Source: Candidatus Magasanikiibacteriota bacterium (lineage in GTDB: Bacteria; Patescibacteriota; Patescibacteriia; Magasanikbacterales; GWA2-37-8). Taken from it: a stretch of DNA of 64,000 nt. The notes beneath the pieces are model-generated. The model had not been told where the DNA came from, ran no database searches, and saw nothing but the letters and a program-made list of their open reading frames with translations. The translations under genes were made by a program, and so were the position numbers. This document shows, piece after piece, positions 2,583 through 56,900 of the stretch (position 1 is its first letter; every line of letters begins with the position of its first letter). The DNA lies in assembly GCA_016182085.1 (NCBI GenBank), contig JACOYB010000004.1:75976-139975 (forward strand). The letters are read 5' to 3'.

Positions 2583-4135
2583 TATTTACTTATTTTTTTT
2601 CGCAGGAGTTTTTCGGTCACGGTTGGATCGGCCGATCCCTCGGTAGCTTTCATGACCATGCCCTTGAGGAATTGAAGAATAGGTTCCTTGCCATTTTTAA
2701 ACTGTTCCACTTGTTGCGGATAATTTTTTATGACTTCATCAATAACTTCCGAGAGTTTTCCTTCATCGCTAATTTGTCCGTAACCTTTTTCTTCCATTAC
2801 ATGGGTTGGGTCCAGATCCACGCCGGAATCAAGCATTTCATTTAGTATCTTTTGAGCGTTGGTAGAGTTTACGCGGTTGGTATAAATAAGCGCTACTAGT
2901 TCGGCAAAGTTTTCCGGTTTTAATCTAAGAATTTTAATATTTATGCTGCGTTCCGCCATCGCGCCCATAAGCTTGCTGGTAATCCAACCGCCGGCAAGTC
3001 TGGCGAGTTGCTGTTGTTTGTTTTGTAGGATTTCGTCCGTATCTGTTTTTGATTCGCTTAGGTTATGCAGCCAGTCTACCAGTTCGCTCATGACCTTTTC
3101 TGTATAGTCGGACCAGTGAAGATCGCTGGAAAGCAGTTCGGCATCTGCATAAGAAAATCCATATTCTTCACGCAGGCGAAGCCTTTTGGCTTGGGGTAAT
3201 TCTGGCAAAGATATATCTCCGGCGATTTTTACCGGGTGAAAAGGCGGAATATCCGGTTCGGGGAAATACCTGTAATCGGCGGCTGTTTCTTTGATTCTTT
3301 GCATCACGGTTTCGCCTTTGTTGTCATCCCAGCCCCTAGTTTGCTGTTTCCAGGCTTCTCCTTTTTCCAGCATGGCGGTTTGCCTGATTATTTCAAACTC
3401 AATCGCTTTTTCCACGGCTCGGAAAGAATTAATGTTTTTTACTTCTACTTTATGATTTAGGGTATAGCCGGCGACCGGTTTTATTACTCCTTTATCGTTT
3501 ATAAATTTATTTTCTTCCTGAAGAGAAATGTTGGCCTCACAGCGCATATTACCCTTTTCCATATCGGCATCGCTGATACCCAAATATCTAAAAATTGCTT
3601 GCAGTTCTTGGGAATACATTTTGGCTTCGGCCGAGCTGGTAACATCCGGTTCGGAAACTATTTCTACCAGCGGCACACCGGCCCGGTTAAAATTCACTAA
3701 AGTATTGCCCGAAGAGTCGTGAGATAATTTAGCCGTGTCTTCCTCCAAGTGTACTCTGGTAATACCGATATGGGCCTTGTCACGATAGTTTTTGCCCGGT
3801 AAGAATTCTAAATCTATATAGCCGTGTTCGCCAATAGGCTGGTCATACTGAGAAATTTGGTAGGCTTTGGGCAGGTCCGGATAAAAATAATGTTTGCGAT
3901 CAAATTTACTTTCGGTATTTATTTGGCAGTTTAATGCCTTGGCAATTTTGGCTGCCCATTCAATTGCCGTGTGGTTTGGCACAGGCAAGGTGCCGGGGTG
4001 GGCCAAGCAGATTTCACAGACATTGGTATTGGGAGCGGCGGAAAAAGGATCGTTTTTGCACGAACAAAACATTTTGCTTTTGGTTTTAAGCTCTACGTGA
4101 ATTTCCATGCCGATTATAGGGGTGTATTTGGGCAT
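2582..4135 (-). CDS. gatB: Asp/Glu-tRNA(Asn/Gln) amidotransferase subunit B
   Basis: 517 aa. N-terminus MPKYTPIIGMEIHVELKTKSKMFCSC with the C-terminal GatB/YqeY domain. Confidence 0.9.
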   Translation of the reverse strand: MPKYTPIIGMEIHVELKTKSKMFCSCKNDPFSAAPNTNVCEICLAHPGTLPVPNHTAIEWAAKIAKALNCQINTESKFDRKHYFYPDLPKAYQISQYDQPIGEHGYIDLEFLPGKNYRDKAHIGITRVHLEEDTAKLSHDSSGNTLVNFNRAGVPLVEIVSEPDVTSSAEAKMYSQELQAIFRYLGISDADMEKGNMRCEANISLQEENKFINDKGVIKPVAGYTLNHKVEVKNINSFRAVEKAIEFEIIRQTAMLEKGEAWKQQTRGWDDNKGETVMQRIKETAADYRYFPEPDIPPFHPVKIAGDISLPELPQAKRLRLREEYGFSYADAELLSSDLHWSDYTEKVMSELVDWLHNLSESKTDTDEILQNKQQQLARLAGGWITSKLMGAMAERSINIKILRLKPENFAELVALIYTNRVNSTNAQKILNEMLDSGVDLDPTHVMEEKGYGQISDEGKLSEVIDEVIKNYPQQVEQFKNGKEPILQFLKGMVMKATEGSADPTVTEKLLRKKISK

Positions 4136-4218
4136 AATTTAGTCTTATTTATGCGTTAAGATTATCATTTTATAGTTTTTTTGGCAATTTATTTTTTACT
4201 CTTTATCCCAATTCTATA

Positions 4219-4690
4219 TCACCCCATTTTGTCAGCAAAACGGGGTGATGCCCCAAAACTGCCTCGCGGATGTACTTATGCCTCGAACTGCCATCAGCTC
4301 TGTCTCGCTTTTGTCCTGAACTCAATTGGCCGTCTATAACGGCCAATCTCAAACAGCAGGACAAATTCCTCCCGTCAAGCGGGAGGAACCGCTCACCATC
4401 ACTGTGGCCAGTTCGGTCAAAGTCCATAGGCTCGGGTATCGAACCGTTGTCCAACGTTGTCCAGGCGAACATTGGAATTATGAGGATAGCAGACAGAGAC
4501 AAACCCGAACGATTCCCTGGCGGAATCTGCCCTGTGTTTGAGCCGAGGCGAGTTCAGGGCAGAAGTGAGTGGTGAGTCCTGTCTGGCTCCGAGTAATTCC
4601 ACCGTGAGCGATTTCTTTCCACCCCCTTTCTTTTAAAAGAAAGGGGGTAAGAGGGAGATGTGTTTTTGCTGACAAAATGGGGTGATAAAG
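4219..4690. ncRNA. candidate structured non-coding RNA or MITE-like element (identity unresolved)
   Basis: GC-rich island in an AT-rich neighbourhood. Closed by 25-bp inverted repeats (atcaccccattttgtcagcaaaa at 4219 / ttttgctgacaaaatggggtgat at 4665). Nested long-range complementarity (gcctcg/cgaggc, cctgaactc/gagttcagg), perfect hairpin ccccctttcttttaaaagaaaggggg. Only short mutually overlapping ORFs without RBS. Confidence 0.3.
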
Positions 4691-4749
4691 GATTATTTTT
4701 TAACTAAAATCCTCCATAAATATGGAGGATTTTAGAATATTTTTTTTGA

Positions 4750-11149: not shown

Positions 11150-11287
11150 TGTCATTCCCGCCGAAGCGGGAATCTAGTATCCGGTTGGGGTTGTCTCTGG
11201 ATTCCCGCTTCGGCGGGAATGACAGGTGTAGATCCCTCCGCTGTGGTCGGGATGACAATGAAACAATCCCGCTTGTGGCGGGACTGC
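11150..11287. repeat. palindromic hairpin-pair repeat element, copy A1 (two units)
   Basis: tgtcattcccgccgaagcgggaatc...gattcccgcttcggcgggaatgaca, then agatccctccgc...ggtcgggatgacaatg plus hairpin tcccgcttgtggcggga. Same family as 30902, 32057, 36567, 45190 and 45780. Confidence 0.85.
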
Positions 11288-12513: not shown

Positions 12514-12566
12514 TCTCAAAAAATAATTTTTACAAAACGCCGTTTTTATAAACGGTGTTTTGTTTT
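12514..12566 (+). repeat. terminator-like hairpin module, copy 1 (direct repeat with 13055-13100)
   Basis: aataatttttacaaaacgccgtttttataaacggtgttttgtttt repeated almost exactly ~540 bp downstream. Each copy is followed by a TTGAC(A/T)-17-(TACGAT/TTTAAT) promoter. Confidence 0.6.
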
Positions 12567-12626: not shown

Positions 12627-12938
12627 ATGAGAGTAGTAATTTCTCGGGAGAAGCTTCTGCTCGTGCGTACCGTGGAGTGTGGTCGTTACGTCATACTGCG
12701 CCAGGTGACCAGGCTAAACGGTCGGGTTCTCTCAAGGTTGAGTTTTCATCTTGGCGAGAAGTACCAAACATCTTTTTCAAAGGTGTTTACCTTGGAGCAG
12801 GCACAGGCGCTGTTCAAATCGGCAAAACTGCAATCCACACTCAACATGAGTGATAAAGAAGTAGAAGGCTTGTATCAACAACTGGGGGAGTTGTTCCCAG
12901 ATCCAGCGTCGTATTTGACGCAAGCTGGATCTAACTAG
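12627..12938 (+). CDS. hypothetical protein
   Basis: 103-aa ORF downstream of the first repeat/promoter module. No motif recognised. Confidence 0.35.
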   Translation: MRVVISREKLLLVRTVECGRYVILRQVTRLNGRVLSRLSFHLGEKYQTSFSKVFTLEQAQALFKSAKLQSTLNMSDKEVEGLYQQLGELFPDPASYLTQAGSN

Positions 12939-13054: not shown

Positions 13055-13100
13055 ATAATTTTACAAAACGCCGTTTTTATAAACGGTGTTTTGTTTTATT
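13055..13100 (+). repeat. terminator-like hairpin module, copy 2
   Basis: Near-identical copy of 12514-12566. Followed by TTGACT-17-TTTAAT and the 13155 ORF. Confidence 0.6.
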
Positions 13101-24983: not shown

Positions 24984-25055
24984 CTCCCAGGCTTGGACTC
25001 GAACCAAGGAAATCCACGTTAACAGCGTGGCGTTGTACCGCTCAACTACCTGGGA
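24984..25055 (-). tRNA. tRNA-Asn (anticodon GUU)
   Basis: Minus-strand cloverleaf. Acceptor UCCCAGG/CCUGGGA, D-arm GUUG..CAAC, anticodon stem CCACG/CGUGG with loop CUGUUAA, T-arm CUUGG-UUCGAGU-CCAAG, discriminator G. CCA not encoded. Confidence 0.85.
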
Positions 25056-25068
25056 ATAGAACTTGAAA

Positions 25069-25087
25069 GCCCGCTTGTGGCGGGCGT
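25069..25087. repeat. solo hairpin of the repeat family (cccgcttgtggcggg), just 5' of tRNA-Asn
   Basis: Identical hairpin core to 11265-11287. Followed by a second hairpin gtagtttctatataaaactac. Confidence 0.5.
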
Positions 25088-30901: not shown

Positions 30902-30974
30902 TGTCATTCCCAACGAATTGGGAATCCAGTATCCGGCCGAATTGTCTGGATTCCCGCTTGCGGCGGGAATGACA
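30902..30974. repeat. palindromic hairpin-pair repeat element, copy A2
   Basis: tgtcattcccaacgaattgggaatccagtatccggccgaattgtctggattcccgcttgcggcgggaatgaca. ~80% identical to the A1 first unit. Immediately 3' of trpS. Confidence 0.85.
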
Positions 30975-31961: not shown

Positions 31962-32056
31962 AGTATTGATTACACGGATTACAGTATGGATTACGCAGAT
32001 TTGAAATTGATAGAGATAGTTTACCGAATTTGTTATGGCTTGTAAACAATCACAGT

Positions 32057-32186
32057 TGTCATTCCCCTAACAAGGGGAATCCAGTATTCGATCGGGTCGA
32101 CTGGATTCCCGCTTTGGCGGGAATGACAGTTGGGACAGAGATCCCTCCGCGGAGTTTATACCCTTTAGGGTGGTCGGGATGACAAT
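32057..32186. repeat. palindromic hairpin-pair repeat element, copy A3 (two units)
   Basis: tgtcattcccctaacaaggggaatccagtattcg...ctggattcccgctttggcgggaatgaca, then agatccctccgcggag...ggtcgggatgacaat. Lies between rlmH and trpS. Confidence 0.85.
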
Positions 32187-32207
32187 TAGCGAAACCTGTA
32201 AGTAATT

Positions 32208-35733: not shown

Positions 35734-36984
35734 TTAAATCCATTTATTTTTTAATTCCATAAATTTATTTTCCTGTATCGCGGTTCTGGCTTGGCGCATC
35801 AAGTCAAGCATGAAAAATAAATTGTGAATGCTAGACAAGCGCATAGCCGAAATTTCTCCGGCATTAAACAGATGGTGCAAATAGGCGCGTGAATAATGTT
35901 GACAGGTATGACAACCGCAATTGGGGTCTACGGGGCCGCTGTCTGTTGCGTATTTTTTATTGGTAATATTTATTCTCAACTTTTGTTCTTCAGTTGGACC
36001 GACAAATAGCATGCCGTGGCGGGCTAGTCTGGTTGGAGCCACGCAATCAAACATATCCACGCCATGTTCTATGGCAATGAGCAGATCGGTAGGTGACAAG
36101 CCAATGCCCATGGCATAGTGCGGTTTATTTTCCGGAATGAGCGGAAATACCCAATCCAAAATATCTTTGGTCGCCTCCATATTGTAGCCAACCGATTCGC
36201 CGCCAATCGCAATGCCATCAAAATCCAAAGATGAAATATATTTGGCAGATTCCTGGCGCAAGTTTTTGTATACAGATCCTTGAATAATGCCAAATAAAAA
36301 TTGTTTGTAGTCGCGAGTATTTTGCGCGGATAATTTTTGGTGTTCATCTAACGATCGTTTGGCCCAACGATGTGTGCGTTCCATGGCTTCGCGCGCGTAT
36401 TTTTCTTCTACGCTATCTGGCGTGCATTCATCAAAAGCCATAATAATATCCGCGCCGATTTTATGCTGCGTTTCAACGGCTATTTCGGGAGTAAAACGGT
36501 GTGAGCTGCCATCTATATGAGATTTAAAAGTAACGCCTTCTTCATCTATAGAAACAAGCTGTGCGTTGTCATTCCGACCGGAGTCCGTAGACAGAGTGGA
36601 GGAATCCCTCTCGTCTGGTTTAAGGGATCCCTCGACTGCGCTCGGGATGACAGTTGTTGGCCTTGATCTTTTTTGTTTCCCTAAACTAAACACCTGGAAT
36701 CCGCCACTGTCGGTAAGAATTGGCTTGTTCCAGTTCATGAATTTATGCAGCCCGCCAAATTCGTTAATTAAATCTTCGCCCGGACGCAAATGTAAATGAT
36801 AGGTGTTGCCCAAAATAATTTGGGCGGGCAAGTTTTGCAGATCGGTTTGATCTAACGTTTTAACGGTAGCTTGAGTTCCTACCGGCATGAAAATAGGTGT
36901 CAAAATATCGCCATGATCAGTATGGATTACGCCGGTTCTAGCCCGGGAATTTTCGTCTTTATGCTGTAGTTCAAAAAATGGCAT
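35734..36984 (-). CDS. tgt: queuine tRNA-ribosyltransferase carrying an in-frame repeat-element insertion
   Basis: MPFFELQHKDENSRARTGVIHTDHGDILTPIFMPVGTQATVK, TDSGGFQVFSLG and the zinc motif CGCHTCQHYSRAYLHHL. Start set at MPFFEL. The ORF-track N-terminal extension is unsupported. Contains about 30 extra residues encoded by repeat A4. Confidence 0.88.
   Translation of the reverse strand: MPFFELQHKDENSRARTGVIHTDHGDILTPIFMPVGTQATVKTLDQTDLQNLPAQIILGNTYHLHLRPGEDLINEFGGLHKFMNWNKPILTDSGGFQVFSLGKQKRSRPTTVIPSAVEGSLKPDERDSSTLSTDSGRNDNAQLVSIDEEGVTFKSHIDGSSHRFTPEIAVETQHKIGADIIMAFDECTPDSVEEKYAREAMERTHRWAKRSLDEHQKLSAQNTRDYKQFLFGIIQGSVYKNLRQESAKYISSLDFDGIAIGGESVGYNMEATKDILDWVFPLIPENKPHYAMGIGLSPTDLLIAIEHGVDMFDCVAPTRLARHGMLFVGPTEEQKLRINITNKKYATDSGPVDPNCGCHTCQHYSRAYLHHLFNAGEISAMRLSSIHNLFFMLDLMRQARTAIQENKFMELKNKWI
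36567..36652. repeat. palindromic repeat element, copy A4, inside the tgt coding sequence (in frame)
   Basis: tgtcattccgaccggagtccgtagacagagtggaggaatccctctcgtctggtttaagggatccctcgactgcgctcgggatgaca. Its reverse complement translates as RPTTVIPSAVEGSLKPDERDSSTLSTDSGRNDN between conserved Tgt blocks. Confidence 0.8.
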
Positions 36985-45189: not shown

Positions 45190-45266
45190 TGTCATCCTGA
45201 ATTCACTTCAGGATCTAAGGGATCAAAAATTGAGATGAGATGCTGAAAACTTGTTCAGCATGACAA
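45190..45266. repeat. palindromic hairpin-pair element, copy A5, in the rpsL-rpsG spacer
   Basis: tgtcatcctgaattcacttcaggatc...gatgctgaaaacttgttcagcatgacaa. Same TGTCAT...ATGACA architecture. Confidence 0.8.
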
Positions 45267-45779: not shown

Positions 45780-45838
45780 CGTCATCCTGAATTCATTTCA
45801 GGATCCTGTGAGATGCTGAAAACTAGTTCGGCATTACA
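45780..45838. repeat. palindromic element, copy A6 (degenerate), in the rpsG-fusA spacer
   Basis: cgtcatcctgaattcatttcaggatcctgtgagatgctgaaaactagttcggcattacaaa. ~85% identical to A5. It shares gctgaaaactagtt with the element at 2469-2582. Confidence 0.75.
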
Positions 45839-48094: not shown

Positions 48095-51000
48095 ATGAAA
48101 AGGGAAAAATTTTTTAGTTTGCATTTCCTCCTTATCAAAAAAAGACTAAAGAGATTTTTTTTGTTGAATTTTCTTTCGCAAGAGAATTCATGTCTGAGTG
48201 AGCCACAGCGAGCGAAGGCGATTCTTTATCGCACCCGTCACATAGTTAATAAAAAACAATTTCGCGCCGCGACGGCTGTGGTTTTACTTATAGTTATTTT
48301 GGTAAATGTATTTTTACCTGAACCCGGGCAAATTGCCCAAGCCGCAACCTATACGTTTGTTCAAACCAGCTGGAGCGGGGGAGCAAGCGCCACCGTTCCG
48401 GTACACCCTACCAACCAAACCAGCTGGAATAAATTTTCCACTAGCACTAGTGCCTTCACAACCGGCACTACAACCGTAACTATTGCCAGTACCACATACA
48501 GTTCTACCGACGATGGAACTTTTTCATCTACCGGCAGCGCGACCGGAGGCGGTTTTAATAATGGCACGACTTCATCCGCAGCTGTTTCGGGCAGCGGCGC
48601 TTCAGCTGTAATTAAATTAACAGGGAGCTCAAGTGCGATAAATCGAGTTACCGTTACTTCCTCAAATAATGGTGCGAGCGCTAATTTTCATGGCGCTTCT
48701 CAAGTCGTTGGCGCTTCCGGATCAGATTATTTATATTTTGTTGAAGCCGCCAATGAAGGCAGGGCATTGCGCCGTTATTCTATTTCCGGAAATTCATGGA
48801 CAGATTTGGCGTCTTATACATATGCCTACTTTGGCGCTCAGTTATTATGGAATGGAAGCGATGATTATATGTATTTAGCTGAAGGCCAAAGTACTGCCTT
48901 TGTTCGTTATTCCATTTCCGGCAATTCTTGGTCATCTATGACTGCTATTCCAGCAGCACTGCCTACCGGCATTACCCAAACGGCCGCTTTGCGCTATGGC
49001 TCAGAAGATTATATCTATCTTTTTAGAGGCGCGGGGCAAACAGCATTTTATCGTTATTCAATTAGTGGAAATAGTTGGGGCACCATGACTGCATTGCCAG
49101 TCGCAGCCGATGTCGGTATCCAAGCTGTCAGAGATGCAGATGGCGATTATATTTATGTGATTACCGGAAATAGCACAGCTTTTTATCGTTATTCTATATC
49201 CGGAAATTCCTGGTCTCATATGGCTTCTAGTTCTGTAAGTCTCACCGGTAACAACGCCAGTGTTTTGCATGATGATGGCAGTGATTATATTTATCTTTTA
49301 ACTAATAATAGTTTCCTTAGATACTCCATTTCCGGAAATTCATGGTCAACTATGGCAGATGCTTCTTCAGTAAATCCTGATTTTGGTTCAACTTTAATCC
49401 ACCCTGCAGGAGGAGATGTTATATATGCGACAGGTGAGTGGGATTGTTGTGGCGCGGTAAGGGTGTGGGGGTACTCTATTTCTGGCAATAGTTGGACAGG
49501 TTACCATATAACTGCGGGTCATTCCGGTGGTTATGGCGCGCCAAATAAAACCGCATACTTAAGATCGGGCGATGAATCATTTTATTTTTTTACTGCCAAT
49601 CAGGATAATGAACTGTTTAAATACACCATGACCGAAACCGTTTATAACACTACGGGTACTTTTACTTCTGCGGCCATGGATTTGGGCGTAGCCGAAATGA
49701 AAAATTTGTCTTGGACCAGCACAACTCCGTCCGGAGTGGGTAATGATGCGATTAAATTTCAACTCGCAGCCAATAATGACAACAGCACCTGGAGCTATGT
49801 TGGCCCAGATGGAACAACTGCTACTTACTTTATAAATAATGGCTCTACTTCATTCCCATCATCTTTTCTTAATAAAAGGTATTGGCGTTATAAAGCGTAT
49901 TTAGGCACATCTAGTACCAGCGCCACGCCATCGCTGGATAATGTTACATTTTCTTATTCTTCTTACGCAACCTCCAGTTATCTTACTTCTTCTATGTACG
50001 ATGCGGGAGATCCAACTAATGTGCTCGCCAGTGTTGCTTGGAATCGGGTGGAGCCGACCAGTACGACAATTAAATTCCAGCTGCGTACCGGTTCTAGCAC
50101 TTCCAGTCTTAACACAGCTGACTTCGTTGGCCCAAGCGGTGTCAGCACGACTTACTTTACTACCAATACCGGAGAAAATACTTCTTCCACCATGCGTGAC
50201 GGATCTAACGATCGCTATTTTCAATATAAAGTTTATTTAGAAACCACAAATCGCGCCTTTACTCCTACGCTCATCGGCGTTACAACCACCTATGTAGTTA
50301 ATGCCAGTCCGGAAATACAAAATGCTTCTTCCAGTCAAATGGCCAGCGGTACGGTATCTATTACTTATCAAGTACGTGACTCAGATACAGATACTGGCAC
50401 AATAAATCCTGGGTATGTGAGCTCTACCTTTGAATATTTAGATGCGGCTGGCGCGTATCAGGTTATTCCAACTAGCCAGCTTTCTTCGGGCGCCAATACC
50501 GTGGCTGTAGACGATGTAAATTGGACTACAAGCAGTGTTACTTGGACTCCGCCGGCAGGTTTAAGTATTGCGGCCAGTAGAATTCGCGTAACATTAAATG
50601 ATAATGAGGCAGCAAATAATACTACGAGTACGATTTCAAATACGTTTCAATTAGATACCGTCACGCCAGCCTCAGGCGCGATTGTGGTGGACGGTTCGCA
50701 AACGTCGGCTTTGGTTACACTTACTGCCGTAGATAGTTCAACTCTGTATATGAAAGTGTCGCTAAATAGCACGCTTTCCGATGTTTCCAGCTGGTCGGCA
50801 TTTTCGGCTACGACCACAATTACCTTAACTTCAAATCCGGCCACCGTATATGTGCAATTTAAAGATGGGTTTAATAACACGTCCAGTATTTTTAGCGCCA
50901 CCACTCCGGAAACACCGAGCAGCACCATAGTTCAAGATATTTCTAATCTGGTAAACGGTATAACCGACTATCGTCTTTTCGTAGCTTGGAAAGTAATAAC

Positions 51001-54000
51001 TACTCCTAGCCCAGGGTTTGCTAATTACATAGTGTATAGATCGCCTGATCAATCTGTATGGACGCCGGTTGCCACCAATACTACCATCACCAACAATTAT
51101 ATTGCGGATAGTTCTGTAGTTTCTAATACGCTTTATTATTATAAAGTGAAATCAACGGATTCTTCAGGCAATGTTTCTATATTTTCATCTATAGTAAACG
51201 GCCGCGCTAACGGTGATCAAGATGCGGGTGAAGGCGGTGGTGGCGCCGGTCCGCCTATAATTACCAGCGTGGCAACCTCTTCGCCAACACCTTCTTCAAT
51301 TACCATTACTTGGAATACGGATGTGCTATCCAATTCCATTGTTGGATTCTCCACCACGGCAGGTAATTTTACCGATAATTCAGTGACGGTCGGTACGATG
51401 GTAGATAGTTCTTCCGGATCCATAGGTCCTCATACCGTAGTTTTGGGAGGACTCACGCCAAATACCACTTATTATTTTAATGTAAAATCCGTTACGGCAG
51501 CTAGTGCTTCCACCACCGAAAATAATGGCGGCAACGGATATATATTTAGAACGCCCAATGGTTCAACCATCACCGGTGTTTCAGCCTCGGAAGTTTATAA
51601 TACCTCTGCGAGAATCGTTTGGAATACTTCGGAAAATGCCGATAGCACCGTCTATTATTCCACTTCCACCAATTTATCAAACGCAATTTCTACCAGCTCA
51701 TCCGCGCTTGGCACATCGCATGATATAACGCTCACCGGACTGACCGGCGGCACGCGATATTATTTTTATGTTCAGTCTGTAAACGCGTCCCAGGTAACTT
51801 CTACAGATAAAAATTTAGTGAGCGGTGTTTATGAATATTATAATTTAGCCACCACGCTTGATACGACGGCGCCGACCATTTCTTCCATTGCCACCACAAC
51901 CAGCAATAATTCTTCAAATGTTACGTGGGTTACAAATGAAGTTGCTAACTCTCAAATAATATACGGTACAACTACCAATTACGGATCCACTACCACCTTG
52001 GATTCCACCTATACCACTCAACATCTTGTGACGGTCGCTGGCCTCGCTTCATCTACGCTGTATCACTTCAAAATTTTATCAAGAGATAAAAATGATAATT
52101 TAACCTCTTCCACCGACCAGGTAATAACCACATCCGCGGCTCCAGATGCGACGGCGCCGACAATTACCAGCGTCACTACTTCCAGCGTGACGCTTACTGG
52201 AGTTACGATTACCTGGTCAACAAACGAAAATGCCAGTTCTATTGTGGAGTATGGTCTGACTACATCTTCATATAACTATATTGCTGGTTCTAATACCACA
52301 TCGGTTACTTCACACTCTGTGTCTTTAACGGGATTAAGCGGCAATACTACATATTATTTCCGAGTCAGATCCACGGACTCATCTGGAAATGCTGGGCTCG
52401 ATGATAATAACGGCAATGGCTGGAGGTTTGTAACCGTGGCCGATACGACCGCTCCGACGATTTCTAATGTTACAATTTTAGTTAATAATACTTCTTCAAT
52501 TATTACTTGGACTACCAATGAAGCCGCCACTTCGGAAATTAACTATGATACAACTGCCGGAGTCTATGGCGCTACGGTTTCAAGTTCCACCCTTAATACC
52601 GGACATTCAATTACGCTTACCGGATTAACGGCAAATACCACCTATTATTTCCGTATCAGATCTGCAGATGCTTCCAGTAATACTAGTACGGATAATAACG
52701 GCGGCACGGGTTATAGCTTTACGACGCTGGCGGCGCCAGTTACGGTTATTGGCGGCGGCGGAAGCGGGGCGGCCGTGGATAGGGATCCGCCGTCTATTGC
52801 AAATCTTAGCATTACTGATATTACGCCAATTTCAGCAAGTGTATCTTGGAGCACAAATGAAGAGGGGAATTCTTTAATACGTTATGGTTCAACAGTCCAG
52901 TATGGAACCTTGGTTGGAAATGATGAACAATTATTATCATCTCAACATAATGTAAAACTGTTTAATTTGAAACCCGGACAAACGTATCATTTGAAAGCAG
53001 TTACCTATGATGCGGCCGGCAATCGTTCCGAGTCGCAAGACCAGATATTTACCACTCTAAATGCTGATGGTACGCAAGCAACTTCAACTGCCACTACAAC
53101 TACTGCTACAAGCACCCAAGATAGCGAGTTGCCTCCAGAAACACAATTTATATCAGAATCTTTGCAAAAAGCCTCAAGCCGATCTCTGCAGCAATTTTTG
53201 AAAGATATAGCGTCCAATCCGCTGCTTAAAGATATTCCGGAAGATAAATTTATTCAAGCATTGCTTGAAATGGCCAGTAAAGTTATAGAGGCGCCGACCA
53301 TTGTCGGTATTAAGCCAACCGTGGAGGTAAGGGGCACTACGGCAATTATTACCTGGTCTACGGATAAAAAATCGACTTCCGAAGTCAACTTTGCCAAAGA
53401 TAGTAATTATAAGCCTGCTGATCGCAGTCCGTACACCAATGCTGCGGTGAACCCCGATGAATTTGGGCTTGCTCATAGAGTAGAATTAACCGGTCTTGAT
53501 GCGGGTATTCTGTATCACTTTAAAGTGATATCCCGCGGTTTAATTGGCCCAGAAGCCTCTAGCGCTGATTTTACGTTCCGAACCTCGGGCGAGTTGCCGG
53601 CGATTTCCGATATACGAGTTACCAGACCTACGAATACTCAATCCATGGTAGTGGTGGGCTGGAGAACTAATGTTCCGACAGCCGGTACCGTAGAGTATAA
53701 GAATGCCAGATCCGGCCAATCCTTAACTCAAGGAGACGCAAGTTTGCTCATCAACCACGAGGTTACTCTGAAGTCGCTTGAAGGTGGAATAAATTATACA
53801 TTGGTTATAAAAGCTAAGGATGAATTTAACAACGAAGTTTCCAGTTTGCCGATAACATTCTCTACTTCGCTTGATAAGGCTCAACCAACCATTTCCAAAC
53901 TCTCTTCAGATTCCACATTATATCCTGGCAGAGATTCCAAAGTGCAGACAATTATTTCTTGGGAAACCGATGAACCGGCCACCTCGCAAGTATTCTATCA

Positions 54001-54256
54001 AGAAGGATTATCTGGTGATAATATCGTATCATTACCTTTGGACACGGCCTTAAATACCAGACATATTGTTGTGGTAACGAAATTTAAACCTGGTACGGTC
54101 TATAAATATTGGGTAGAATCCAAAGACTTGGCCGGCAATATGGCCAAATCCGAAGTATTCTCAATCCTGACGCCGCAAGAAAAAGAAACTATCATTGATA
54201 TTATTATCAATAATTTCCAATCAGTATTCGGCTGGACCAAAAATATTGGAATCTAG
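48095..54256 (+). CDS. giant membrane-anchored surface protein: six-blade YSISGNSW-repeat propeller plus ~10 fibronectin-III-like domains
   Basis: 2053 aa. N-terminal TM anchor (AATAVVLLIVILVNVF). Six ~55-aa repeats each containing (Y/F)(R/V)YSISGNSW(S/T). Then repeated ~95-aa modules with (I/V)TW.TNE...S...YG.T..Y......H.V.LTGL...TTYYF(R/K)(V/I)(R/K)S.D.SGN. S/T-rich linkers. Confidence 0.85.
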   Translation: MKREKFFSLHFLLIKKRLKRFFLLNFLSQENSCLSEPQRAKAILYRTRHIVNKKQFRAATAVVLLIVILVNVFLPEPGQIAQAATYTFVQTSWSGGASATVPVHPTNQTSWNKFSTSTSAFTTGTTTVTIASTTYSSTDDGTFSSTGSATGGGFNNGTTSSAAVSGSGASAVIKLTGSSSAINRVTVTSSNNGASANFHGASQVVGASGSDYLYFVEAANEGRALRRYSISGNSWTDLASYTYAYFGAQLLWNGSDDYMYLAEGQSTAFVRYSISGNSWSSMTAIPAALPTGITQTAALRYGSEDYIYLFRGAGQTAFYRYSISGNSWGTMTALPVAADVGIQAVRDADGDYIYVITGNSTAFYRYSISGNSWSHMASSSVSLTGNNASVLHDDGSDYIYLLTNNSFLRYSISGNSWSTMADASSVNPDFGSTLIHPAGGDVIYATGEWDCCGAVRVWGYSISGNSWTGYHITAGHSGGYGAPNKTAYLRSGDESFYFFTANQDNELFKYTMTETVYNTTGTFTSAAMDLGVAEMKNLSWTSTTPSGVGNDAIKFQLAANNDNSTWSYVGPDGTTATYFINNGSTSFPSSFLNKRYWRYKAYLGTSSTSATPSLDNVTFSYSSYATSSYLTSSMYDAGDPTNVLASVAWNRVEPTSTTIKFQLRTGSSTSSLNTADFVGPSGVSTTYFTTNTGENTSSTMRDGSNDRYFQYKVYLETTNRAFTPTLIGVTTTYVVNASPEIQNASSSQMASGTVSITYQVRDSDTDTGTINPGYVSSTFEYLDAAGAYQVIPTSQLSSGANTVAVDDVNWTTSSVTWTPPAGLSIAASRIRVTLNDNEAANNTTSTISNTFQLDTVTPASGAIVVDGSQTSALVTLTAVDSSTLYMKVSLNSTLSDVSSWSAFSATTTITLTSNPATVYVQFKDGFNNTSSIFSATTPETPSSTIVQDISNLVNGITDYRLFVAWKVITTPSPGFANYIVYRSPDQSVWTPVATNTTITNNYIADSSVVSNTLYYYKVKSTDSSGNVSIFSSIVNGRANGDQDAGEGGGGAGPPIITSVATSSPTPSSITITWNTDVLSNSIVGFSTTAGNFTDNSVTVGTMVDSSSGSIGPHTVVLGGLTPNTTYYFNVKSVTAASASTTENNGGNGYIFRTPNGSTITGVSASEVYNTSARIVWNTSENADSTVYYSTSTNLSNAISTSSSALGTSHDITLTGLTGGTRYYFYVQSVNASQVTSTDKNLVSGVYEYYNLATTLDTTAPTISSIATTTSNNSSNVTWVTNEVANSQIIYGTTTNYGSTTTLDSTYTTQHLVTVAGLASSTLYHFKILSRDKNDNLTSSTDQVITTSAAPDATAPTITSVTTSSVTLTGVTITWSTNENASSIVEYGLTTSSYNYIAGSNTTSVTSHSVSLTGLSGNTTYYFRVRSTDSSGNAGLDDNNGNGWRFVTVADTTAPTISNVTILVNNTSSIITWTTNEAATSEINYDTTAGVYGATVSSSTLNTGHSITLTGLTANTTYYFRIRSADASSNTSTDNNGGTGYSFTTLAAPVTVIGGGGSGAAVDRDPPSIANLSITDITPISASVSWSTNEEGNSLIRYGSTVQYGTLVGNDEQLLSSQHNVKLFNLKPGQTYHLKAVTYDAAGNRSESQDQIFTTLNADGTQATSTATTTTATSTQDSELPPETQFISESLQKASSRSLQQFLKDIASNPLLKDIPEDKFIQALLEMASKVIEAPTIVGIKPTVEVRGTTAIITWSTDKKSTSEVNFAKDSNYKPADRSPYTNAAVNPDEFGLAHRVELTGLDAGILYHFKVISRGLIGPEASSADFTFRTSGELPAISDIRVTRPTNTQSMVVVGWRTNVPTAGTVEYKNARSGQSLTQGDASLLINHEVTLKSLEGGINYTLVIKAKDEFNNEVSSLPITFSTSLDKAQPTISKLSSDSTLYPGRDSKVQTIISWETDEPATSQVFYQEGLSGDNIVSLPLDTALNTRHIVVVTKFKPGTVYKYWVESKDLAGNMAKSEVFSILTPQEKETIIDIIINNFQSVFGWTKNIGI

Positions 54257-56839: not shown

Positions 56840-56900
56840 ATTAAAAAGTTTCCGCTTCGGGCGGACGGATGTTTGATAGAAGTTCTAAATATATTGATGT

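Follow-up and report, generated by a model that had tools for sequence, protein, structure and literature searches.

The window analysed here, 64,000 nt of one contig from the ultra-small genome of a Magasanikbacteria member of the Candidate Phyla Radiation (CPR), contains six repeat elements that are built from about 13 oriented hairpin modules. Each module begins with (T)GTC, continues with a palindrome of stem, loop and stem bounded by AT on both sides, and ends with a 3' C; in the layout of most modules, two are paired in inverted orientation (TGTCAT...ATGACA). Five of the six elements occupy short spacers between co-directional genes, namely rplA/pyk (copy 1), trpS/DUF5671 (copy 2), rlmH/trpS (copy 3) and rpsL/rpsG/fusA (copies 5 and 6), with which they are probably co-transcribed, and copy 4 lies in frame inside tgt, so that the siting at operon boundaries, including the str operon, which an earlier note on this DNA had described, holds for all copies except this one. 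The same note had listed six copies, as a minimum, and had taken their conserved internal strings as a sign of common descent. Elements of the described kind have been found in all six intervals, and the octamer GTCATYCC occurs 14 times versus 2.3 times expected, a count that none of 100 dinucleotide-preserving shuffles has reached. Against such shuffles, which have served as the background of the enrichment tests, the searches for GTCATYCC, for the dRS3 and Ssn-related motifs and for the Neisseria Transformation Sequence described below have all exceeded expectation. Matches to GTCATCCC at 3323 (gatB), 23585, 25354 and 49518 have been rejected, since these octamers stand alone and belong to no hairpin; by eye, the match at 3323 has been seen to encode GWDDNK. 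An Rfam scan of the window has returned no family for the repeats, its sole match being a tRNA.

The family has been identified through a full-text literature search with sequence strings, which has led to a study on Neisseria (Chenal et al., 2025, Nat Commun 16:2388, PMC11893778); literature on GIY-YIG together with MITEs (miniature transposable elements with inverted repeats) or hairpins, Patescibacteria or the Rickettsia palindromic elements (RPEs) has yielded nothing relevant. The study has described the Neisseria Transformation Sequence (NTS), CGTCATTCCCGCGMAVGCGGGAATCYRG, which contains dRS3, and has also defined broader Ssn-related motifs (SRM), the search string for which has been derived from 29 genomes of four phyla (PMC11893778). 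SsnA of Neisseria is a single-domain GIY-YIG protein of 94 aa (cd10448), which binds the folded hairpin as single-stranded DNA (ssDNA) only and cuts a few nucleotides upstream of it; the C after the palindrome is needed for binding and the three upstream bases for cutting, and RNA is not bound (PMC11893778). Motifs flank most ssn homologues, and the NTS-ssnA-NTS arrangement has been likened to an insertion sequence with a mobility that has only been hypothesised, while SsnA, acting by hydrolytic chemistry, lowers the integration of NTS-flanked transforming DNA (PMC11893778). NTS lie inside genes in 2% of cases in N. meningitidis, Rickettsia is among the genomes with more than 300 SRMs, and CPR bacteria go unmentioned (PMC11893778). 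Site-specific ssDNA cleavage upstream of a hairpin is known only for the Neisseria and Wolbachia enzymes.

The likeness to dRS3 that had been noticed before has turned out to be literal, as five modules of the window contain the exact ATTCCC-N8-GGGAAT (at 11154, 11201, 30906, 32061 and 32105) and three agree with the NTS at 25 to 26 of its 28 positions, the mismatches of the best ones concerning the first base and the loop. With up to three mismatches allowed, the Neisseria NTS consensus gives 3 matches in the window versus 0.00 expected (0 in 100 shuffles). Based on the exact dRS3 and the 25-26/28 NTS matches, the repeats would very probably be hairpin repeats of the NTS/SRM type, the cognate ssDNA sites of Ssn-family GIY-YIG nucleases. 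The published SRM regular expression has been rejected as a membership test in this window, being too strict at one loop base and selecting a single module.

Modules of the NTS type constitute the pairs of copies 1 to 3 and have the stem ATTCCCGC/GCGGGAAT, or its compensated variants AA/TT and CT/AG, followed by CYAG. The left module of copy 1 (11150..11177, +) reads TGTC-ATTCCCGC-CGAA-GCGGGAAT-CTAG, agrees with the NTS at 25/28 positions, contains an exact dRS3 and folds into an 8-bp hairpin (z -4.3), and its inverted partner (11197..11224, -), likewise at 25/28, is 96% complementary to 11150-11177. A third module of copy 1 (GATCCCTCCGC..GGTCGGGATGACA, 11231..11257, -) belongs to the direct-repeat family D11 and is of a type that ssn cassettes have at their 3' end; the cassette in the relative L001 introduced below ends on the right with this very module. 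In copy 2, the left module (30902..30929, +) has the compensated stem AA/TT, and the right one (30946..30974, -) is the only module of the window that fits the published SRM pattern. In copy 3, a left module with the compensated stem CT/AG (32057..32084, +) and a right module that agrees with the Neisseria NTS consensus at 26/28 positions (32101..32128, -) are accompanied by a further solo module, long-looped and of the cassette type (TGTCATCCCGACC...GGAGGGATCTCT, 32137..32184, -). The earlier description of the two arms as inverted repeats is borne out for these three copies, with 96%, 83% and 75% complementarity, respectively, as determined by a repeat finder that has also recovered the common left arm (D4, D7), right arm (D5) and tail (D11); the common internal strings reported before have been found in the same copies.

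A second module type, with ATCCCGA.. or ATTCCGA.. stems followed by CCCT, makes up copy 4 as well as the tails that copies 1 and 3 have. Copy 4 consists of a module with a long loop (TGTCATTCCGACC...GGAGGAATCCCT, 36567..36610, +) and its partner (TGTCATCCCGAGCGCAGTCGAGGGATCCCT, 36623..36652, -), both inside the tgt coding sequence. The third type, with ATCCTGAA and ATGCTGAA stems, is that of copies 5 and 6. In the rpsL-rpsG spacer, the left module of copy 5 (TGTC-ATCCTGAA-TTCAC-TTCAGGAT-C, 45190..45216, +) is followed by TAAGGGATC, a junction that is found at the 3' end of ssn cassettes, and the right module (TGTC-ATGCTGAA-CAAGTT-TTCAGCAT-C, 45239..45265, -) forms a hairpin unlike that of the left arm. 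In the rpsG-fusA spacer, the left module of copy 6 (CGTCATCCTGAATTCATTTCAGGATC, 45780..45806, +) is 86% identical to that of copy 5 (D16), and the right module (45812..45838, -) has a degenerate end with GTAAT for GTCAT. The termini that had been described as common to all copies are reduced to the outer TGTCAT/ATGACA in copies 5 and 6, degenerate in the latter (CGTCAT...ATTACA), and the arms of these two copies are two different hairpins rather than inverted repeats of each other.

Folding of each copy as ssDNA has given z-scores of -2.5 to -9.2 for the six elements, in line with the stable hairpins predicted before. Single modules fold into 8-bp hairpins as ssDNA, with stems of 8 bp in the NTS type and the ATCCTGAA type, and a hairpin is formed by every module of the window, each being an imperfect palindrome within the approximately 20-50 nt given for an SRM. 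Every module of the window has the GTC before its palindrome and the C after it, except the degenerate right end of copy 6. When 13 NTS-type modules of four genomes (from the window and from three other CPR loci) are aligned, neither the GTC nor the 3' C varies (13/13), and pairing extends to all 96 stem cells (100%), with three pairs altered on both sides, GC/GC being replaced by AA/TT and by CT/AG. As the modules have been picked partly by pairing, the percentage is somewhat favoured, which does not affect the compensated variants within otherwise identical copies of the window. A first covariation count has been dropped as circular, its modules having been preselected by pairing. For stem positions 6-9 of the CCCT type, a symmetric pairing test has been discarded that gave fewer pairs than shuffled partners; its register was wrong because of an internal GA/A or tandem G·A loop, and the covariation analysis has consequently been restricted to the NTS-type alignment.

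The gene that would belong to these repeats has been found in relatives, of which L001 (CAZUFD010000004.1) is the closest and L002 and L004 are further ones, the labels denoting related loci or genomes compared. In the rlmH-trpS spacer of L001, at the same spot and with the same TGTCATCCCGACC start as copy 3 of the window, a 96-aa GIY-YIG gene lies between TGTCATCCCGACC..GGAGGGATCCC and its inverted copy; in this SRM-ssn-SRM cassette, TGTCATCCCGACCGCAGCGGAGGGATCCC stands on one side of the gene and an inverted copy of TGTCATCCCGACCGCAGCGGAGGGATCCC on the other. The encoded protein comprises the GIY-YIG domain only and is 54% identical (E 1e-32) to its sole homologue in N. gonorrhoeae, which by its 94 aa, the presence of Y6, Y17 and E64, and its NTS flanks would be the SsnA orthologue. 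The L001 record, also labelled L006, is titled 'uncultured Gammaproteobacteria bacterium', a taxon label that is probably wrong, as the order of its genes and the identities of its proteins (for TGT, 91% over aligned positions) fit the Magasanikbacteria window. The gonococcal locus L049 (NZ_CP119140.1), in which the NTS copies beside ssnA face the gene, opposite to the CPR cassettes, is, together with NZ_CP119142.1, one of two 2.17-Mb N. gonorrhoeae chromosomes that are filed as plasmids in PLSDB. In L002, an ssn gene 80% identical to that of L001 has the same kind of ends at another locus, carA-carB, where a gene-less pair adjoins the cassette. At L002:7418-7448, this gene has ACG at the position of the ATG start in L001, after an in-frame TAA, and is called from an internal ATG (86 aa), so that the copy may be decaying.

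A scan with one genome per species has yielded 41 homologous ssn loci in Magasanik-, Howlett-, Peregrini-, Sacchari-, Buchanan-, Doudna-, Uhr- and Gracilibacteria as well as in a few Acidobacteria, Planctomycetes and one alphaproteobacterium. A correctly oriented module has been found within 150 nt upstream of the gene in 33/41 loci, downstream in 27/41 and on both sides in 25/41, for a chance expectation of about 6% per side even at the enriched local density. These counts bear on the possibility that the elements are REP/REPIN sequences spread by a RAYT, i.e., a domesticated Y1 transposase of IS200/IS605. The architecture would be the same, with two inverted hairpins that form a larger one in multiple, extragenic copies, but the sequence fits NTS/dRS3 and not REP, and in 25-33 of the 41 loci the gene between the modules encodes a GIY-YIG nuclease instead of a Y1 transposase. 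No RAYT flanked by modules has been found in the 41 loci, the open reading frames (ORFs) of the window not having been screened exhaustively for one, and we regard this origin as highly improbable.

Comparison with related genomes at the sites of the repeats has revealed empty sites, which the earlier note had proposed to look for. The rpsL-rpsG spacer measures about 20 nt and is empty in L001 versus 108 nt in the window, the rpsG-fusA spacer 40 nt and empty versus 91 nt, and copy 2 as a whole is missing where L001, L002 and L004 have the orthologous trpS-DUF5671 spacer. Conversely, the carA-carB spacer is empty in the window (15 nt) and contains one pair in L001, a pair nested within a pair in L004, and the cassette with its adjoining pair in L002. 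The rlmH-trpS spacer differs in all four genomes, with the ssn cassette in L001, an ORF of 117 aa, one of 165 aa and an SRM cluster, and is an insertion hot spot (coordinates L001:14783-15201, L002:15536-16097, L004:12405-12972 and window 31962-32207). The ssn genes of L001 and L002, despite their 80% identity, occupy different loci, and on one Uhrbacteria contig two cassettes 72 kb apart share 88% identity across the 421 nt delimited by TGTCAT and ATGACA, and their flanks, at 43-46%, are no more alike than unrelated sequences. The junctions ATCCCTTAA...TAAGGGAT of the cassettes are retained in pairs that have no gene.

Two other explanations can be weighed against this variation. Host regulatory hairpins, acting as intrinsic terminators, attenuators or mRNA-stabilising or processing sites at operon junctions, would agree with the stability of the hairpins and with the short co-directional spacers that house 5/6 probably co-transcribed copies, but the elements have no T tail and have escaped a terminator scan, the same spacers are empty in a close relative, the conserved str operon included, and one copy lies within a coding sequence. 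Invariant single-stranded GTC/C flanks and symmetry on both strands would moreover be superfluous for a function in RNA, which SsnA does not bind (PMC11893778), so that the proposal of terminators or processing sites made in the earlier note appears weak, and we consider a regulatory origin improbable. Classical MITEs of a DDE-transposase insertion sequence, similar to Correia elements, could account for the small size, the TGTCAT/ATGACA terminal inverted repeats and the polymorphic presence. Target-site duplications are not visible at any copy, the 'terminal repeats' form hairpins of their own, the stems of which covary, and the full-length relatives encode a 96-aa nuclease in place of a transposase, which makes this origin very unlikely; the Correia likeness suggested before is likewise unsupported, since the ends differ and no sign of a TA duplication has been seen.

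As copy 4 shows, the repeats also occur within genes. Its host tgt (queuine tRNA-ribosyltransferase, 35734..36984, -) has a Pfam TGT match that is split in two, and the pair is read in frame as TVIPSAVEGSLKPDERDSSTLSTDSGRND. Residues 104-142 of the TGT of the window, 39 extra ones, fall between the adjacent residues 113/114 of the solved Z. mobilis TGT, and removal of 29 residues (87 nt, the 86-nt core plus one) results in the loop length of the homologue P0010, which is without the element; the copy 4 insert is also missing from close TGT homologues. The TGT of the window is identical to a protein annotated from a Candidatus Magasanikbacteria metagenome-assembled genome. An AlphaFold model of the insert region has pLDDT values below 50 and no secondary structure, and the insert is thus predicted to be a disordered loop. 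In three genomes, the insertion site has identical DNA flanks, ccaacaac before TGTCAT...ATGACA and acgcaca after it, with different hairpin interiors, and in a fourth genome a pair is located elsewhere in the same loop, which may have been struck at least twice independently. The loop is enlarged in 57/107 homologues, with peptides of the module-end type in at least 16 of them, and in the 29 homologues that have been aligned, the variable sites of insertion number at least four. Two further in-frame pairs, which add 23 and 26 residues, have been found in L004 in a uvrD-like gene, so that the insert lengths in the three coding cases, 87, 69 and 78 nt, are all multiples of three. Among the TGT homologues P0012, P0039, P0055, P0032 and P0038, the recurrent insert peptides HISPLPRGSAEGV...PSLERRGDN and CHCEEGTDEAIP...ARNDR have been observed at four TGT sites, which suggests further types of hairpin repeats that are translated in CPR proteins. 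The trpS product is longer in L004 (375 aa, L004:12973-14100) and L050 (362 aa, L050:4050-5138) than in the window and L001 (324 aa), and this may likewise be due to in-frame insertions.

From the comparison of these sequences, the repeats appear to be mobile, which we hold to be likely. The pairs would be gene-less, MITE-like deletion derivatives of SRM-ssn-SRM cassettes that spread and turn over within CPR lineages, the survivors being filtered by selection for short co-directional operon spacers or, if their length is a multiple of three, for a tolerant, disordered surface loop such as that of TGT. Owing to the inverted layout TGTCAT...ATGACA, each strand bears, at the 5' end that the element has on it, one module in the correct orientation, and the nicks made by Ssn would therefore enclose the element, one on either strand. 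Whenever the DNA becomes single-stranded, as in replication or DNA uptake, a resident Ssn might nick just outside the element on each strand, and by analogy with the proposal for Neisseria such nicking might modulate the recombination or integration of repeat-bearing DNA. A role of Ssn as the mobilising enzyme is plausible, if somewhat less than probable. In its fullest form, which we put forward tentatively, the reading would be that SRM-ssn-SRM cassettes are autonomous mobile elements of an unrecognised class, driven by a ssDNA nuclease of the GIY-YIG family with about 95 aa, and that the hairpin pairs are their MITEs, active in CPR bacteria in that they vary between close relatives, nest and repeatedly colonise coding sequences, adding variable peptide loops to housekeeping enzymes.

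A serious rival, and a real possibility, is that the repeats are targets of Ssn without being moved by it. They would then spread via hairpin-driven template switching, gene conversion between copies or uptake and recombination, and Ssn would be a domesticated factor of 'ssDNA restriction' that acts on DNA with such repeats or against it, in keeping with the proposal made for Neisseria. The hydrolytic chemistry of SsnA and the reduced integration of NTS-flanked DNA in its presence speak for such a role (PMC11893778). A cassette often has one variant on its left and another on its right, and the tgt site with identical flanks and different interiors in three genomes fits a conversion or replacement of modules. 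The cassette junction motifs kept in gene-less pairs and the duplication of cassettes as discrete, sharp-ended units speak against it, and the nested pairs look like insertion and not like conversion.

Several observations weigh against the assignment to the NTS/SRM-Ssn system or against mobility by Ssn. At most one mismatch to CGTCATTCCCGCGMAVGCGGGAATCYRG, by which an NTS is defined, is found in no module of the window, the best ones having two and three; the published degenerate SRM string matches 1 of about 13 modules (0.04 expected), the others missing one loop position, and copies 5 and 6 have been assigned by their ends and the junction motif only. No ssn gene has been detected in the 64-kb window by tblastn, and none of the 120 best ssn homologues lies on the source contig of 410 kb. 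All CPR ssn genes found have flanks of the CCCT type and none those of the NTS (CCAG) type of copies 1-3; the flanking modules face ssnA in Neisseria and point outwards in CPR bacteria, and in only 6/25 loci do both cassette ends match one another best (rank 1). Neither the six copies nor the insertions in tgt and the uvrD-like gene have shown a target-site duplication, and no exact boundary can be defined, because divergence has gone too far in the intergenic flanks and the loop that forms the coding site is variable by itself. To our knowledge, a hydrolytic GIY-YIG nuclease has no strand-transfer activity, and we know of no demonstrated transposition in the NTS/SRM-Ssn family. With these points included, we hold with good confidence that NTS/SRM repeats whose pairs derive from mobile cassettes would be the best overall explanation.

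Other features of the window deserve mention. The interval given for copy 1 in the earlier note (11150-11287) extends too far, as 11259-11287 does not belong to the element and 11263-11287 is a separate GC hairpin without module flanks, terminator-like (-) and located downstream of rplA. It shares the 15-mer CCCGCTTGTGGCGGG with 25066-25084, beside a tRNA gene (24984-25055, -), and neither site has GTC...C flanks. Such flanks are also lacking at the solo hairpins that had been ascribed to the family (25069-25087, 56845-56860 and inside 2469-2582), which cannot be assigned to it. The element at 2469-2582 consists of a 16-nt inverted repeat (AACTAGTTTTCAGCAA / TTGCTGAAACTAGTT) around GC-rich hairpins and a degenerate module (CTCATCCCGACGCGATTCGGGATTCC); this inverted repeat is similar to the modules on the right of copies 5 and 6, so that the element may be a decayed relative. 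A perfect direct repeat of 39 nt (12528-12566 and 13059-13097), each copy of which forms a terminator-like hairpin of 14 bp, brackets a 531-nt segment of higher G+C content with an orphan ORF of 103 aa (12627-12938, no Pfam match), which looks like a small insertion that has duplicated its target terminator. An inverted repeat of 31 nt (4210-4240 / 4664-4694, 94% complementary) surrounds 423 nt with only orphan ORFs, without Pfam matches, and may mark another small mobile element. The ORF at 48095-54256 (2053 aa) contains Kelch motifs and six repeats of the purple-acid-phosphatase-N/FN3 type, and its repeats explain the direct-repeat families D1-D3, D8 and D10.

The window and its relatives provide comparative evidence on two questions that Chenal et al. 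have left open, i.e., the role of Ssn and its repeats outside Neisseria and whether NTS-ssnA-NTS is mobile now or was so formerly, and they make mobility testable in a defined set of sequences. A nearly identical recognition sequence of 28 nt is encountered here in a phylum that is maximally remote from Neisseria among bacteria. In practice, such repeats break assemblies, as many ssn genes are located on 0.5-3 kb contigs, and they give rise to spurious ORFs and strange peptide inserts in annotations of metagenome-assembled genomes. CPR genomes furthermore offer, as yet unexploited for ssDNA tools, Ssn/hairpin pairs that differ in specificity.

Among known systems, NTS/SRM-Ssn (PMC11893778) is the one to which the repeats correspond in the GTC-palindrome-C module, in the nearly identical ATTCCCGC-N4-GCGGGAAT-CYAG of copies 1-3, in the multiple copies, and in the modules that flank, in relatives, a single-domain GIY-YIG gene of about 95 aa, 54% identical to the gonococcal SsnA orthologue. 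They differ from it in the CPR (Magasanikbacteria) host, the mostly tight inverted pairs with outward GTCAT ends, the coexistence of several stem variants (ATTCCCGC, ATCCCGA, ATTCCGA, ATCCTGAA and ATGCTGAA), the in-frame copies within genes and the lack of ssn in the window. With the Neisseria dRS3/NIMEs, the window shares the five exact dRS3 sites and a mosaic, modular build, but RS units of 50-150 bp between the repeats are missing. In Neisseria, dRS3 has a role in phage integration, for which no evidence has been seen at the sites in the window. The architecture of REP/BIME/REPIN-RAYT is similar in that a hairpin with an oriented flank is read as ssDNA by a small nuclease with a repeat-flanked gene and inverted doublets are amplified; unlike there, the enzyme is a GIY-YIG hydrolase and not an HUH Y1 transposase, and the repeat sequence differs, so that the REP/BIME comparison of the earlier note remains an analogy of architecture. 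IS200/IS605 and its PATE/MITE derivatives have hairpin ends read as ssDNA, no target duplication and gene-less miniatures in common with the cassettes, but their own hairpins point the same way at either end and one strand is cut by a covalent Y1 enzyme, in contrast to the inverted ends and the hydrolytic enzyme here. RPEs, described by Ogata et al. in 2000, are reportedly palindromic selfish repeats of a reduced genome that are found in frame in housekeeping genes and translated as extra loops, and we know of no enzyme assigned to them. The likeness to RPEs proposed before is supported by in-frame insertion, in tgt of the window, which the earlier note had overlooked, and in the uvrD-like gene of L004; it is one of behaviour and no proof of membership, and a link between RPEs and SRMs is possible given the more than 300 SRMs in Rickettsia genomes. 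The repeat family is thus real, non-random and already explained in kind, a CPR-lineage addition to the NTS/SRM-Ssn system, and what would go beyond the published description is the comparative evidence, drawn from sequence, for movement and for the recurrent in-frame colonisation of housekeeping genes.

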